A DNA stretch of 64,000 nucleotides from a bacterium (GCA_030647205.1 JAUSJO010000005.1:74523-138522); one strand, 5' to 3'. Numbered from the stretch's first letter, positions 37,838 to 59,248 are shown. A program made the numbers and translations. The notes: generated by a model from the letters alone, not told the origin.

Positions 37838-37846
37838 TGCTATAAT
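37838..37846 (+). promoter_or_regulatory. Extended -10 (TGcTATAAT) 7 nt upstream of ATG 37854, implying a leaderless mRNA
   Basis: Read directly. Confidence 0.45.
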
Positions 37847-37853
37847 TTTGCTT

Positions 37854-38957
37854 ATGGAAGAAGAAGAGCTAAAGAAACCTAATTTCTTTAAAAGACACTG
37901 GAAGCTTTTGATGATAGTTTTCGGGATACTTATTATTCTGGCTGTTGGTACTATTGTCGGCCTTAATAAACTAGATAGGTATTATAAAGAAAAGTCCGGA
38001 GAGGTCGCCCCAAAAGTCGAGACAGAGTGCAAAAAGCCCGAGTTCACTCATCCCATGACTGATCTATCAAAGATTGCTTCTATCGGGAAGCTGGGTGGTT
38101 TTGGCTGTGGTTCGCCGGCGAGAAGCTACCTTACGATTAAGGGAGGTGAAGTTCCTGTATATGCGCCGATGGATGCTACTCTCGAGACCATTATTTATAC
38201 ACCGAGAGGTGGACCGGAAACTCCGCCGGAATATGGACTGTATTTTAATGCCGGTTGTAATGTGACATTTCTGTTGGATCATATAGACAGAGTGACTGAT
38301 GAGCTGAAGGCACTAGCGCCACAGCAGCCGGCTGAGTCTACCAGGACTGAGCTTGGAACGCGTCCGAACAAGAAGATTAAAGCAGGGACACTAGTCGGCT
38401 ACTCTGATGGTACACCACAGGCGAAGACATTTGACTTTCTGGTGATGGATATGTCAAAAGTGGGGGAGCATATAAATCCTTCTCGTTGGGAGACTGACCA
38501 GGCTAAGTATGGGGTTTGTCCGTACGACTACTACATTGCCCCTTATAAGGAGCAGTTTATGGAGAAGATAGGGATTAGTAGTGATACTGGTTTCACACCG
38601 GAGGATAGCTGTGGAATACCTTCTCAGGATGTGGTGGGCACACTCTCGGGAGGTTGGTTTAAGGGTACGGGTACCAATATGAAAGGCGAATTTTTAGGTA
38701 TCGGCCAGAACATACTAAGGGTTGAAGTGGCCTTGCGTAAGGATGGTAACTTTGACTTTAGTCTGCAGGACTGGGATATGGGGAAGAAAAAGCCGAAAGA
38801 CGTGAAGGTAGGGGAACAAATCTGCTACAGCGACCAAGGTAGTAATCTCTGGGCATGGATAAGGTTAGTTTCCCAAGATAAAATCTCGTTTGCGAAGGGC
38901 AGCGGGAAGTGTCCGGCCGCTTTTCCGGAATCTCAGGCGGAAATTTGGGAAAGATAG
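37854..38957 (+). CDS. Hypothetical membrane-anchored protein
   Basis: ORF. Leaderless start MEEEELKKPNFF with a TM anchor. Confidence 0.5.
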   Translation: MEEEELKKPNFFKRHWKLLMIVFGILIILAVGTIVGLNKLDRYYKEKSGEVAPKVETECKKPEFTHPMTDLSKIASIGKLGGFGCGSPARSYLTIKGGEVPVYAPMDATLETIIYTPRGGPETPPEYGLYFNAGCNVTFLLDHIDRVTDELKALAPQQPAESTRTELGTRPNKKIKAGTLVGYSDGTPQAKTFDFLVMDMSKVGEHINPSRWETDQAKYGVCPYDYYIAPYKEQFMEKIGISSDTGFTPEDSCGIPSQDVVGTLSGGWFKGTGTNMKGEFLGIGQNILRVEVALRKDGNFDFSLQDWDMGKKKPKDVKVGEQICYSDQGSNLWAWIRLVSQDKISFAKGSGKCPAAFPESQAEIWER

Positions 38958-38981
38958 TTTCAATGTAGAACAGTTTCTGTG

Positions 38982-39167
38982 CTATTTTTTATTTATATAT
39001 TTCCACAATGCGGCGATACCGAGAATTAGGGCGACTATGACGAGTATGTAGCCAATCCACATAAAAATCATGGCTCCGCCATAGCTTCCACCCATCATGT
39101 TTTGATAGGAATCGTAGTTGTACATCATTGTAAATCTCCTTTGTTTAGCTTGAGTATAGGTAAACAA
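38982..39167 (-). CDS. Tiny single-TM protein, paralog of 42520-42708 (real start probably MMYNYDSY...)
   Basis: About 85% amino-acid identity to the paralog. RBS AAAGGAG precedes ATG ATG. Confidence 0.55.
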   Translation of the reverse strand: MFTYTQAKQRRFTMMYNYDSYQNMMGGSYGGAMIFMWIGYILVIVALILGIAALWKYINKK

Positions 39168-39558
39168 TGATGGATTTACTATGGGCAGGAATACAAAAGA
39201 ATCAGAACATTTTCGTGGCTATTTTTTAGCTAAATCCAGCAAGTTTTTGAAAAGAGTTAAGGCCGCCCTTGCGGGCGGCCTTGTTGGTACGTGTTTTCGC
39301 GTTGTTTTCTTGCAGTTTCTGGTTGTCAGCCTTGGGAGCTAATTATCAAGAGCATTAACGCGATGCAGAAGATAGCTATGGGGAGCCAGTTTCTTTTGAT
39401 GTCTCTCCCGAGCTCAAACAAGGGCCAGAACATCTCGTCGCGATTCGCCACCTTCTTGATTCTTGTCATTCTTGTCGTCATTGCGATAACCTCCTTGAGA
39501 TGTTACGTGGTTAGTAACATGCCGATTGACTGGGGTGCAGGTGTACATGGAAGTTGGC

Positions 39559-56110: not shown

Positions 56111-56200
56111 GAAATTTTATTTTATTAAAACTTGTTGTTTTATTTTTTTCCTTTGGTATTATATAAGTATTATAAAGTATTTTTTGATCTAGGAGGGTAA

Positions 56201-57205
56201 ATGGGTATTTTAATCGGAATTATAATAGGAACGCTAGTTATTGCTGGTGCTGGTGGCGGTGTTTACGTTCTTGTATTTAGAGCGAAGCACAAGAAAGAGC
56301 TTCTCGCAAATTCACAGATGGGGAATAATCTTCCAACCTTAGGGGCGGAACCTGCTCAGCAAAATCAAACACAAGGACTACCTAACTTAGGTGGAGTCCC
56401 AAATCAAGGCCAAGGGAGTCCCATGGCTAGTCCAGTCATGAATGATATTACTGGTGGAGGATTGCCGCAAGTCCCTCAGGCGCCGGCTGCACCGATGCAG
56501 GAGGAACCTTCTTTTATGAGTCCCCAAGAACCGCCGACAATAAATCGCAGTTTTCCGGATACGCCTCAGGTGCCAGAAGCCCCGGTTGCTGACAGTCTAG
56601 GTATGATACCTGAAGCACCTGCTGCACCAGCCAATACATTTGATTTAAGTCAAATGGATCAGAGTACAATCGGCTCAGGGAGTTTGCTTGATGATACAGA
56701 AACCGTAGGGCCTGTTGCCGGAATGGCAGAAGACTCGTTAAGCAATGCAACTGATGTTGATATAAGCGATTCTACAGTACCGGTTACAAGAGAGAATGAA
56801 TCTTTGGAACAAGTAGAGTCTGAACTTGGTGATGTCTCAGTATCTGCTCAGACAGAGGAAAGAGAAGAGCAAAATGCAGCTCCGGAAGTTCCTGTCATGT
56901 CTTCAGTACCGCAGCCTGATCCGGTTAGTGCCCCAGAACCTGTTGTACAGCCTGAACCACCGGTTACTCCAGAACCATCTATAAGTATCCCTGTACAGGA
57001 TTTTCCGAATATTGGTCAGTCGTCAGAACCTCAAAATACACCGAGCGAACAAATTCCTGACGTGCCAATCGCTTCTCAAGGAAATATGTCGCCAATGCCA
57101 GGGATTTCTACTGTATCAGACTTTCCGTCAATCCCGTCAGCACCACAGGCGGCAGGATCACCTGAAAACAATACTGATTCTGGTACACAGGAAATGCATA
57201 TTTAA
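56201..57205 (+). CDS. Membrane-anchored Pro/Ser/Gln-rich low-complexity protein
   Basis: RBS AGGAGG; N-terminal TM; P-rich repeats. Confidence 0.5.
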   Translation: MGILIGIIIGTLVIAGAGGGVYVLVFRAKHKKELLANSQMGNNLPTLGAEPAQQNQTQGLPNLGGVPNQGQGSPMASPVMNDITGGGLPQVPQAPAAPMQEEPSFMSPQEPPTINRSFPDTPQVPEAPVADSLGMIPEAPAAPANTFDLSQMDQSTIGSGSLLDDTETVGPVAGMAEDSLSNATDVDISDSTVPVTRENESLEQVESELGDVSVSAQTEEREEQNAAPEVPVMSSVPQPDPVSAPEPVVQPEPPVTPEPSISIPVQDFPNIGQSSEPQNTPSEQIPDVPIASQGNMSPMPGISTVSDFPSIPSAPQAAGSPENNTDSGTQEMHI

Positions 57206-57220
57206 CTAAACTATTTTCTC

Positions 57221-57252
57221 TAAAAAAGAGAGGTCAAGACCTCTCTTTTTTG
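57221..57252 (+). terminator. Rho-independent terminator (overlaps the ligA -10)
   Basis: agagaggtcaagacctctct followed by tttttt. Confidence 0.7.
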
Positions 57253-57265
57253 TTATAATTTACCT

Positions 57266-59248
57266 ATGACAAAGATTTCTTTAAATGAGGCAAGTCAGAG
57301 AGCAGAGAAGTTACGGGCAGAAATAGACCGTATTCGCTATGCTTATCACGTTTTAGATAAGGAAATAGTCTCCGAGAGCGTGAAGACATCTCTGATGCAC
57401 GAGCTTACACAACTTGAAACCATATATCCGGAGCTTATCACTCCTGACTCTCCAACTCAGCGGGTGGCCGGGAAACCGCTTTCAAAGTTTCAGAAGGTTC
57501 GCCATTCTCATCCCGGTATGTCTCTGAATGATGTATTTGACGCACAAGAGCTTGAGGACTGGAAAAACAGAGTTCAGAAACTAGTACCAAATGAGAAGTT
57601 GGATTATTACGTCGAGCTCAAGCTAGACGGTCTTTCTGTCTATTTAATCTACGAAAAAGGGCTTTTAAAGACAGCGGCTACCCGCGGGGATGGCACAACG
57701 GGTGAGGATGTTACACAGAATATCCGAACTATTGAAAGCATTCCTTTGAAATTAACTGAGCCCGTCGACATCGAAGTGCGCGGCGAAGTCTACATGGATC
57801 ACGGGCAATTTGAGAAAGTAAATAAAGAGCAAGAGAAGATAGGCAAGCCGACTTATGCCAATCCGAGAAACTTGGCGGCGGGGACTTTAAGACAACTCGA
57901 TCCAAAAATTGTTTCGGCCAGGAAACTAAAGTTTATGGCTTGGGCGATATTTGAGGAAGGAATTAAAAATCACGAACAAGAACACGAGATGGCAAAAAAG
58001 CTTGGATTTAAAGTCGAACCAAACTCCCGCCATTGCAGAAACCTCAAAGAAATTGAGAAATTCCTTGAAGAGTGGGAAGACAAAAGAAAGAAGTTGCCAT
58101 ACCAGACAGATGGAGTGGTTATAAACATAAACTCTGAAGATTTAGTTAATAAATTAGGCATAGTTGGCAAGGCGCCTCGCGGAGTTGCGGCCTACAAATT
58201 CTCAGCCGAACAAGTTACAACAGTTCTGGAAGATATACGAGTAAATGTCGGACGAACCGGAGCCATCACGCCTTTTGCCGTTCTGACCCCCGTGAAAGTA
58301 GCGGGATCTACTGTTTCCAGGGCTACATTGCACAACGAAGATGAGATAAAACGCAAAGACATCCGCATCGGTGATACAGTTATTATCCAAAAAGCAGGCG
58401 ATATTATCCCTGAGGTAGTCCAGTCATTGCCCAATTTACGAACAGGCAAAGAAAAGATATTTAAAATGCCGACCACTTGTCCGATATGCGGAGGGCCGGT
58501 AGTGAAACCTGAGGGTGAGGCGGTAGCTCGTTGTACGGCAGAGAACTGCTTTGCTATAGAAATGCAAAAGGTAGGTCACTTTGTATCAAAAGGCGCATTC
58601 AATATGGAAGGTTTGGGCGAAAAAATCATTACACAATTGATTGAAGAAGGATTGATTGAAGATGCAGCAGACCTCTTTGCTTTGACAGAAGGTGACCTGA
58701 CACCGCTTGAAAGATTTGCAGAGACCTCAGCCAAAAATACTGTTGCATCGATACAAGAACACAAAAAAGTATCATTTAGGAGATTTCTCTATGGCCTTGG
58801 CATCCGCCACGTTGGGGCGATAACGGCATCAGATATCACGAGAAAATTCAGAAAATTGGAAGACATTCAGGGTGCCTCGCTTGAAGATTTGCAAGCGATT
58901 GACGGGATTGGCGATGTAGCGTCAGAAAGTATTTATAAATGGTTTAGAAATAAAAAGAATCTAGAATTCCTGAAGAAGCTAAAGGATAACGGGGTAGAAA
59001 TAGTTTATGAAGTGGTAAAGAGTAAATTGGAAGGCAAGACCTTCGTTCTGACAGGATCGCTCAATACTATTACTCGTGATGAAGCAGAAGAGTTAATCCG
59101 TACAAACGGCGGAAATGCTTCTGGTTCTGTCTCAAAAAGTACTGATTTTGTAGTAGTCGGCGACAACCCCGGCTCAAAAGCCGACAAGGCCGAGCAACTG
59201 GGCGTCAAAATAGTAAGCGAAGAAGATTTCTTAAAGATGGTGAAATAG
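57266..59248 (+). CDS. ligA: NAD-dependent DNA ligase (leaderless: TGtTATAAT 57251-57259 lies 6 nt before the ATG)
   Basis: KxDG adenylation motif (ELKLDGLS), OB fold, Zn finger CPICGG...C, HhH, BRCT. Confidence 0.9.

Follow-up and report, generated by a model that had tools for sequence, protein, structure and literature searches.

Promoter -10 boxes abutting ATG start codons suggest leaderless expression at about a quarter of operon heads in a Patescibacteria genome

We analyzed a 64-kb stretch of bacterial DNA (GCA_030647205.1, JAUSJO010000005.1:74523-138522; hereafter, the window, with positions counted from its first letter) in which 13 genes, and a weaker 14th candidate, carry a -10 promoter hexamer that ends 6-8 nt before the ATG start codon, an arrangement suggestive of leaderless mRNAs. 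The window has a GC content of 41.7% and uses the standard genetic code. Its LigA protein has matches with 87-90% identity in metagenome-assembled genomes (MAGs) labelled "Patescibacteria group bacterium" and with 58% identity in MAGs labelled Candidatus Saccharibacteria, and its UvrB is present in NCBI as a MAG protein of 682 aa with an identical start. Because of these protein matches and the labels of the relatives, several of which come from Hainich groundwater samples (H41), the window was assigned to Patescibacteria, or the Candidate Phyla Radiation (CPR). Its contig is contained in sequencing run SRR13727527.

A preliminary description of this DNA had named eight genes with such a hexamer and had given coordinates for five extended -10 boxes (TGnTATAAT). 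All eight hexamers were read in the sequence at the described distance, and the five coordinates are exact. The eight genes, all on the plus strand, encode a GGDEF diguanylate cyclase (4432-5121; promoter and start codon at 4420-4434, with TATAAT at 4420-4425, a gap of 6 nt, no Shine-Dalgarno [SD] motif, and no alternative start found within 30 codons); UvrB (21250-23298; 21236-21252, TATAAT at 21236-21241, gap of 8 nt); a membrane-anchored hypothetical protein of 367 aa (37854-38957; 37838-37856, TGCTATAAT, extended box at 37838-37846 with the hexamer at 37841-37846, gap of 7 nt); a hypothetical protein of 154 aa (43796-44260; 43781-43798, TGCTATAAT, extended box at 43781-43789 with the hexamer at 43784-43789, gap of 6 nt); a serine hydrolase (44967-45482; 44952-44969, TGCTATAAT, extended box at 44952-44960 with the hexamer at 44955-44960, gap of 6 nt); SecG (49138-49359; 49102-49140, TTTACT-17-TGATAGAAT, hexamer TAGAAT at 49125-49130, gap of 7 nt); a LysM surface protein (53642-54097; 53627-53644, TGATATAAT, extended box at 53627-53635 with the hexamer at 53630-53635, gap of 6 nt, located 3' of a hairpin at 53601-53621); and LigA (57266-59248; 57251-57268, TGTTATAAT, extended box at 57251-57259 with the hexamer at 57254-57259, gap of 6 nt). 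The secG box is also of the extended type, which had gone uncounted. The serine hydrolase gene heads an operon that runs through uvrC to position 48676, and the later genes of this operon start by overlap coupling or after an AAGGA motif.

A pass over all starts of open reading frames (ORFs) added five sites. These precede trmD (19052-19720, plus strand; 19037-19054, TGATAAAAT, gap of 6 nt, immediately 3' of a terminator at 19017-19037), the gene for an EamA transporter (23488-24345, minus strand; 24343-24358, TATAAT, gap of 7 nt), the gene for an Imm5-like immunity protein (42045-42488, minus strand; 42486-42501, TATAAT, gap of 7 nt), a methyltransferase gene (44298-44915, plus strand; 44283-44300, TGATATCAT, gap of 6 nt), and the gene for a transglutaminase-like membrane protein (52400-53599, plus strand; 52387-52402, TATAAT, gap of 7 nt, 3' of a terminator at 52331-52352). 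The weaker candidate is nrdR (26147-26593, plus strand; 26112-26149), with TTGAAA-17-CAATAT-6-ATG; the spacer of this promoter contains a palindrome (ACATAT..ATATGT) that is a possible NrdR box. Tallied over the 13 sites, the gap is 6 nt at eight, 7 nt at four, and 8 nt at one. No SD 4-mer or 5-mer was found within 3-12 nt of these 13 starts.

The anatomy of the sites suggests a promoter recognized mainly through its -10 region. The TG of the extended -10 element is present at 8 of the 13 sites. When 44 sites from the window and its relatives are pooled, 32 have T at -3 and 29 have G at -2 in the upstream profile, which also contains a T-tract and only a faint -35 signal. In a consensus scan for a -35 element with at least four of six matches, 16-18 nt upstream, secG alone qualified among the leaderless-type sites between 37.5 and 57.4 kb. 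In Escherichia coli and Gram-positive bacteria, a TG that precedes the hexamer by one base makes up for the lack of a -35 element. The sites in the window resemble such promoters in the frequency of the TG and the scarcity of -35 elements with four or more matches; in model organisms, however, extended -10 promoters normally precede leadered mRNAs, whereas here they are fused to the start codon. Terminator-like hairpins lie immediately upstream of ligA, 52400, 53642, and trmD, and the T-run of the terminator at 57221-57252 overlaps the TG of the ligA box. Because these terminators abut the promoters, supply of the four genes by read-through is unlikely, and no alternative promoter was found in the intergenic regions of the leaderless-type sites.

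The distance between -10 hexamer and ATG, which the preliminary description had proposed to tally, peaks only at 6-8 nt when counted over the window. TATAAT occurs 73 times on the two strands, and in 11 of these cases the hexamer is followed after 6-8 nt by the ATG of an ORF of at least 80 codons, compared with 0.47 expected for the three distance bins (Poisson P = 4e-12), and every other distance between 0 and 40 nt holds 0-1 cases, about 0.16 on average. As a control, we used 696 kb of unrelated loci from a metagenome scan with a CofD-like protein; the matches have at most 54% identity and show no synteny to the 37.7-58.7 kb region, so that they serve as negative controls, and many of these loci are more AT-rich than the window. 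TGnTAnAAT occurs 6-7 nt before the ATG of a long ORF in 6 of 21 cases in the window and in 2 of 277 cases in the controls, where the distance histogram is flat, with counts of 2, 3, and 0 at distances of 6, 7, and 8 nt. Chance co-occurrence of AT-rich hexamers and ATG codons in AT-rich intergenic DNA might be invoked for a genome of 42% GC with 73 TATAAT per 64 kb, the more so as one of the 11 hexamers, at ATG 8398, is intragenic. The distance histogram and the controls, very AT-rich loci included, effectively refute this explanation, and the conservation of the pattern at orthologous genes, described below, also speaks against it. ATG 8398 itself (TATAAT, gap of 6 nt) was rejected as a start because it falls inside a LeuRS-like ORF that begins at 8281 and has the usual KWQ..W motif; this match is probably due to chance.

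The position of the sites within operons separates them from other gene starts. Of 54 operon heads, 13 are preceded by the motif, compared with none of 20 internal genes (Fisher p = 0.015); gaps shifted as a control gave 0-2 matches. SD motifs, in contrast, are not confined to one class, being found at 27 heads and at 11 internal genes. Overall, AGGAGG-type SD motifs 3-12 nt upstream of the start are found in 38 of 74 genes, about half; the leaderless pattern is found in 13-14 genes, that is, about 18% of all genes and about 25% of the approximately 54 operon heads; and about 21 genes, mostly overlapping or closely coupled, have neither an SD motif nor a -10 box. The window thus appears to contain the two initiation modes side by side that the preliminary description had noted. 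Its wording of a pervasive leaderless architecture captured a real pattern but overstated the extent; with a share of about 25%, the architecture concerns roughly one transcription unit in four. The two classes of genes differ also in start codons: ATG is used at 20 of 21 leaderless-type sites in the clade, compared with 27 ATG, 8 TTG, and 3 GTG among SD-led genes (11 of 38 non-ATG). At leaderless-type sites, the modal gap is 6 nt and the base at -1 is a pyrimidine in 18 of 20 cases; a pyrimidine before a purine is the usual context of a transcription start.

Conventional promoters are available in the same window for comparison. The two canonical promoters noted earlier at 16142 and 17891 are both present on the plus strand: TTGACA-17-TATAAT at 16142-16170, followed by a leader of about 127 nt with an AGGAGG SD and the ATG at 16304, and TTGACT-17-TATAAT at 17891-17919, followed by a leader of about 39 nt with an AAGGAG SD and the TTG start of rpsP at 17965. 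The latter promoter is kept in the relatives L110, L112, and L113, and the ensemble of TTGACT-17-TATAAT, a leader of about 40 nt, AGAAGGAGCAGGA, and the TTG start is kept in four of five genomes. On the minus strand, an operon of six tRNAs (51343-51955) is preceded by TTTACA-16-TATAAT at 51973-52000, which is kept in L001. In the clade DNA set (239 kb, consisting of the window and about 175 kb from L001-L006 and L110-L113), all 14 canonical TTGACW-16/17/18-TATAAT pairs are intergenic, and in the window they serve leadered genes.

These comparisons bear on the possibility that the TATAAT-like box is a translational element, that is, an A/U-rich ribosome-binding site other than SD or an S1-binding enhancer of the Bacteroidetes type (group B), within mRNAs that start further upstream. 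The box does occupy the position of a ribosome-binding site and is A/U-rich, and the approximately 21 genes with neither SD nor -10 box indicate that SD-independent initiation occurs here anyway. A group B element would be expected before internal genes as well, but it precedes 0 of the 20 internal genes and 13 of the 54 heads. Furthermore, the box carries the extended -10 TG, which is a sigma contact without a role in translation; the same hexamer stands 16-17 nt from TTGACW or TTTACA in the promoters of the leadered rpsP and the tRNA operon; and terminators lie directly upstream of the boxes, in intergenic regions that yielded no other promoter. We therefore consider a translational role of the box, instead of a promoter role, very unlikely.

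For genes with informative profiles or homologs, several lines of evidence confirm the proposed ATG codons as the starts. Curated profiles begin at residue 3 of UvrB, residue 11 of LigA, and residue 5 of SecG, and Pfam profiles begin at residue 7 of the EamA transporter and residue 5 of the serine hydrolase. UvrB homologs with 66-96% identity share the N-terminus MDKF.LKS or start within three residues of it, the differences in length among them coming from an internal insertion rather than from the N-terminus; the 37854 protein agrees with its four closest homologs in length (366-367 aa) and in the N-terminus MEEE..KKPNFFKR; and the start of nrdR is fixed by the zinc-ribbon N-terminus MIKCPYC. 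The juxtaposition of -10 box and ATG could nonetheless be an illusion of annotation if the true starts were downstream Met codons with a ribosome-binding site, an objection raised in the preliminary description, or upstream TTG or GTG codons. In-frame TTG codons do occur 2 and 6 codons upstream of 37854 and 43796 (at 37848 and 43778, respectively), and public gene calls in relatives sometimes pick other starts. However, these TTG codons adjoin or lie inside the extended -10 box and lack an SD motif, and no downstream in-frame start with an SD motif was found within 30 codons of any of the genes.

The divergent public calls themselves argue for the ATG beside the -10 box. The uvrB call in L112 (9986-10001) has a TTG start 15 nt inside the gene, and the trmD calls in L111 (7842) and L112 (7936) are 4 and 19 codons too short, respectively; these calls drop conserved N-terminal residues that are restored by starting at the ATG beside the -10 box. 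In the genome studied here, the Logan call for nrdR starts at TTG 26237, 30 codons late, with loss of the MIKCPYC zinc ribbon. Start mis-calls downstream of an ATG adjacent to a -10 box are the systematic error expected for leaderless genes. With family profiles and homolog N-termini beginning at the proposed ATG, starts elsewhere are highly improbable.

The strongest evidence for a leaderless reading comes from conservation across relatives. The ligA relatives are L001-L006, those of uvrB, trmD, and rpsP are L110-L113, and those of 37854 are L114 and L115; the uvrB and 37854 relatives were obtained through protein searches, and a tblastn search with 12 proteins of leaderless-type genes against loci L001-L108 yielded orthologs for 52400 and 53642 only. 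Across these relatives, with protein identities of 58-90%, the unit of -10 box and ATG is kept for ligA, uvrB, trmD, 37854, 52400, and 53642, while the flanks have diverged. For ligA, TGGTATAAT-N6-ATG is found in L001, L003, L004, L005, and L006, and TATAAT-N6-ATG without the TG in L002; the DNA further upstream cannot be aligned across the relatives and contains a different terminator hairpin in three genomes. For uvrB, L111 and L112 have the TATAAT and the gap of 8 nt of the window, and in L113 the box is TGATAGAAT with a gap of 9 nt. In each of the five genomes, L110-L113 included, the first ATG of trmD follows an extended -10 box (TGnTAAAAT or TGnTAGAAT) at a distance of 6-7 nt, and 0-4 codons separate this ATG from the conserved KFN..ITLFP core downstream. 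Because the position of the ATG varies while the gap to the -10 box remains constant, the promoter and the start codon appear to move as a unit.

The 37854 orthologs in L114 and L115 (72-73% identity) have TGATATAAT-TTTGCTT-ATG in common with the window gene and no similarity to it further upstream. At 52400, CATATAATAAAACCCATGAAA, a block of 21 nt with the -10 box and the ATG, is identical in L001 within a region of 67% identity. The nrdR gene of L112 (13771) is preceded by TTGAAA-17-CAAGAT-6-ATG, the same geometry as in the window. In L001, gatC directly follows ligA and is of the leaderless type (TATAAT, gap of 8 nt); in the window, an extra gene is inserted before gatC, which has neither a -10 box nor an SD motif.

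Taken together, these observations are best accounted for by a CPR bacterium in which leaderless genes, with the -10 box abutting the ATG and no ribosome-binding site, and SD-led genes would coexist, a reading to which we assign a probability of roughly 0.85. Its core appears well supported by the distance statistics, operon position, start codon usage, N-terminal homology, and conservation. According to this model, the housekeeping sigma-70-type RNA polymerase would bind an essentially -10-only promoter at 13-14 operon heads, in which the extended -10 TG and a T-tract usually stand before the hexamer and a usable -35 element is mostly missing. The -10 hexamer spans -12 to -7, so that a gap of 6 nt puts +1 on the A of the ATG; gaps of 7-8 nt fall within the normal discriminator range or correspond to leaders of 1-2 nt. 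With the hexamer ending 6 nt, sometimes 7-8 nt, before the ATG, transcription would thus start on this A or 1-2 nt from it, and the predicted mRNA would have AUG at its 5' end and no SD motif. The ribosome together with the initiator tRNA would then bind the 5'-terminal AUG directly, a mode of initiation demonstrated experimentally in Mycobacterium, Deinococcus, and for lambda cI in E. coli. Downstream genes of the same operons would use an SD motif or stop/start coupling. The rpsP gene, the minus-strand cluster at 39-43.7 kb, and the tRNA operon would be transcribed from conventional TTGACW-16/17-TATAAT promoters, which in the case of protein-coding genes would add leaders with AGGAGG-type SD motifs. 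The lambda cI (PRM) and Tn1721 tetR mRNAs are leaderless, with a 5'-terminal AUG, a strict requirement for AUG, and no SD motif. Those are isolated cases in an SD-dominated genome, in contrast to the systematic and conserved fraction of genes described here.

Several points weigh against this reading or limit it. We infer the position of the transcription start and the mechanism of translation from the geometry of the -10 box and the pyrimidine-purine context. The wider gaps of 7-9 nt could correspond to leaders of 1-3 nt rather than to strictly leaderless mRNAs; one such case is the 53642 ortholog in L001, which keeps TGATATAAT with a gap of 9 nt. In L110, a palindromic repeat takes the place of the -10 box of uvrB, so the arrangement is not obligatory. 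A search of the whole window against Rfam at gathering thresholds returned tRNAs alone and no 16S rRNA that would allow comparison with the anti-SD sequence. The signal is also weaker in more distant Patescibacteria (L007-L027), and the claim therefore applies to this clade and not to the phylum.

The preliminary description had further suggested that a TTGNNN hexamer 7 nt upstream of the -10 box could reflect a distinct recognition element. The strings are indeed present: TTGNNN-7-TATAAT occurs at 4407, 52033, 52374, and 53617, and the L001 ortholog of 53617 retains TTGATT-7. A role as a recognition element, however, found no support, with 2 of 44 pooled leaderless-type sites having the hexamer. 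At spacer 7, TTG is found at 3 of 12 sites in the window; among 33 sites in relatives it is found twice, once at the 53617 ortholog. In L001, the ortholog of 52374 has CTTTAA and lacks the TTG, although its -10 box and ATG match those of the window perfectly; the TTGCAT at 53617 belongs to the terminator-like hairpin at 53601-53621, of which it forms the descending (3') arm; and at 52033, a spacing of 7 in the window corresponds to one of 8 in L001. Actual enrichment upstream of the hexamer is confined to the TG at -15/-14 and the T-tract. Over the 216 TAnAAT in the window, TTG at spacer 7 (seven cases) is as frequent as at spacer 9 (seven) and less frequent than at spacers 17 (12) and 18 (nine).

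A stricter search for exact TTGAC[AT]-Nk-TATAAT pairs in the 239 kb of clade DNA gave, besides the main peak at k=17 (12 pairs), a secondary peak at k=7 (three) and k=8 (four), with 0-1 pairs at other spacings and about 0.14 expected for each. The seven pairs at k=7-8 compare with about 0.3 expected; this excess vanishes when one mismatch is allowed, and four of the seven pairs are intragenic or antisense and unconserved at orthologous positions, unlike the canonical pairs, all 14 of which are intergenic. In the known geometry of the holoenzyme, moreover, sigma regions 2 and 4 cannot span a spacer of 7-8 bp. A second, compact promoter geometry of the RNA polymerase of this clade, with TTGACW 7-8 bp upstream of TATAAT as at the 52033 RNA promoter and its L001 ortholog, has therefore little chance of being real: the numbers are small, the comparison is post hoc, the pairs are mostly intragenic, and the geometry is structurally implausible. 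Such a geometry would account for the excess of exact pairs at k=7-8, but we ascribe a low probability to a functional role of these pairs.

The motif at 52033, set aside in the preliminary description for want of an ATG, appears to drive transcription of an unannotated RNA of about 310 nt on the plus strand (52033-52365 with the promoter, 52058-52365 for the candidate RNA itself); TTGACA-7-TATAAT and TTTTCA-16-TATAAT are the candidate promoters. A conserved hairpin (TGTAAGGAnnnCATCCTTGCnAGTACC) marks the 5' end of this candidate RNA, and a strong terminator lies at 52331-52352; its ortholog in L001 has a divergent middle part, and no conserved ORF was found in it. A 102-codon open frame upstream of ATG 52400 (ORF 52148) was rejected as coding because no more than 35 of its codons stay open in L001, the indels are not multiples of three, and the terminator and the conserved -10 box precede ATG 52400. 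The window also contains three copies (4146-4310, 48886-49062, and 55752-55915) of a conserved element of about 170 nt, which is found at other genomic positions in relatives (L001:11700-11878 and L003:4385-4562), with 77-92% identity. It begins with the hairpin CCACTTTTTTAGAAAAAGTGG, RNAalifold detects nine pairs with compensatory changes, and no Rfam family corresponds to it; the two candidate identities are a multi-copy small RNA and a miniature mobile element. Rfam searches at E<=1 on 51960-52420 and 48840-49140 gave no meaningful match.

Two further arrangements concern gene starts and promoters in the window. The start of panD (5252-5593) lies 7 nt past the encoded CCA end of tRNA-Ala (5169-5244), with no SD motif, -10 box, or terminator between the two; the tRNA has its own extended -10 box (TGCTAAAAT, 5148-5156, plus strand), and the panD mRNA may become nearly leaderless through 3' processing of the tRNA. 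A cluster of small genes on the minus strand (38982-43649) has mostly canonical promoters (TTGACA, TTGAGA, or TTGATA at a spacing of 17) with strong SD motifs. The cluster includes the Imm5-like gene, itself of the leaderless type, and two near-identical ORFs of 47-48 aa (starts at 39128 and 42669; MMYNY...) with duplicated upstream DNA, and it may represent a toxin/immunity or bacteriocin-like island. Intergenic regions of the clade, including those of the window (around 11290-11315 and 31445-31470), contain scattered copies of a short palindrome (GGATTCCCGCCTTCGCGGGAATGACA and variants); it is also the repeat that replaces the uvrB -10 box in L110, and it lies upstream of rpsP in L111.

Among the closest known counterparts of this architecture is group C of GeneMarkS-2. 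In these genomes, leaderless operons, which make up 25-50% of the total, have a Pribnow box at a distance of 6-8 nt from the start codon of their first gene, and SD motifs serve the other operons and the internal genes (PMC6028130). Group C is concentrated in Actinobacteria (M. tuberculosis, Streptomyces, and Corynebacterium) and Deinococcus-Thermus, and the same distance of 6-8 nt has been reported for M. tuberculosis (PMC6028130). The window is similar to group C genomes in the share of heads (about 25%), the gap of 6-8 nt, and the use of SD motifs elsewhere. Unlike the Actinobacteria of this group, the host is an AT-rich Patescibacteria/CPR MAG with near-perfect TATAAT hexamers and a frequent extended -10 TG, and unlike in M. 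tuberculosis, for which differential RNA sequencing (dRNA-seq) is available, the leaderless class is predicted here from sequence.

In Deinococcus-Thermus, a -10 motif adjacent to ORFs drives leaderless mRNAs and requires a specific spacing (Zhong et al. 2025, PMC12340547). The -35 element is optional and enhancing there, about 30% of ORFs are involved, mis-annotated start codons result, and genes with a classical promoter and ribosome-binding site coexist with the leaderless ones (PMC12340547). The Deinococcus-Thermus motif is a degenerate TANNNT validated by mutagenesis and reporters, whereas the motif described here is TATAAT or TAnAAT with TGn and is backed by comparative evidence only. 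De Groot (2014) reportedly also describes the "-10 motif adjacent to ORFs" of Deinococcus-Thermus. The domain-wide supplementary tables of the recent Deinococcus study contain no CPR genomes (PMC12340547). Our searches for leaderless genes in CPR (Saccharibacteria, Patescibacteria, Parcubacteria, and TM7/Nanosynbacter) found no report in the searchable full-text literature, which leaves out most subscription literature, and automated annotators may already model the leaderless pattern silently. What we describe is thus a known bacterial leaderless pattern in a lineage for which we found no report of it in the searchable literature.

Leaderless initiation is well documented in Actinobacteria, Deinococcus-Thermus, and archaea. 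CPR bacteria have reduced ribosomes and tiny genomes, and to our knowledge, their basic rules of gene expression are largely unknown. If the pattern holds, systematic leaderless expression would extend to CPR as a third major lineage of bacteria, a point relevant to the proposed ancestral status of this mode of initiation. It would also explain start codon mis-calls in public MAGs, three of which were encountered here (uvrB and trmD in relatives and nrdR in this genome), and would illustrate the compression of intergenic regions in this clade, with a terminator, a promoter, and a start codon packed into about 45 nt at ligA. Finally, it would provide minimal cassettes of promoter and start codon (TGnTATAAT-N6-ATG) for the emerging genetic tools of Saccharibacteria.

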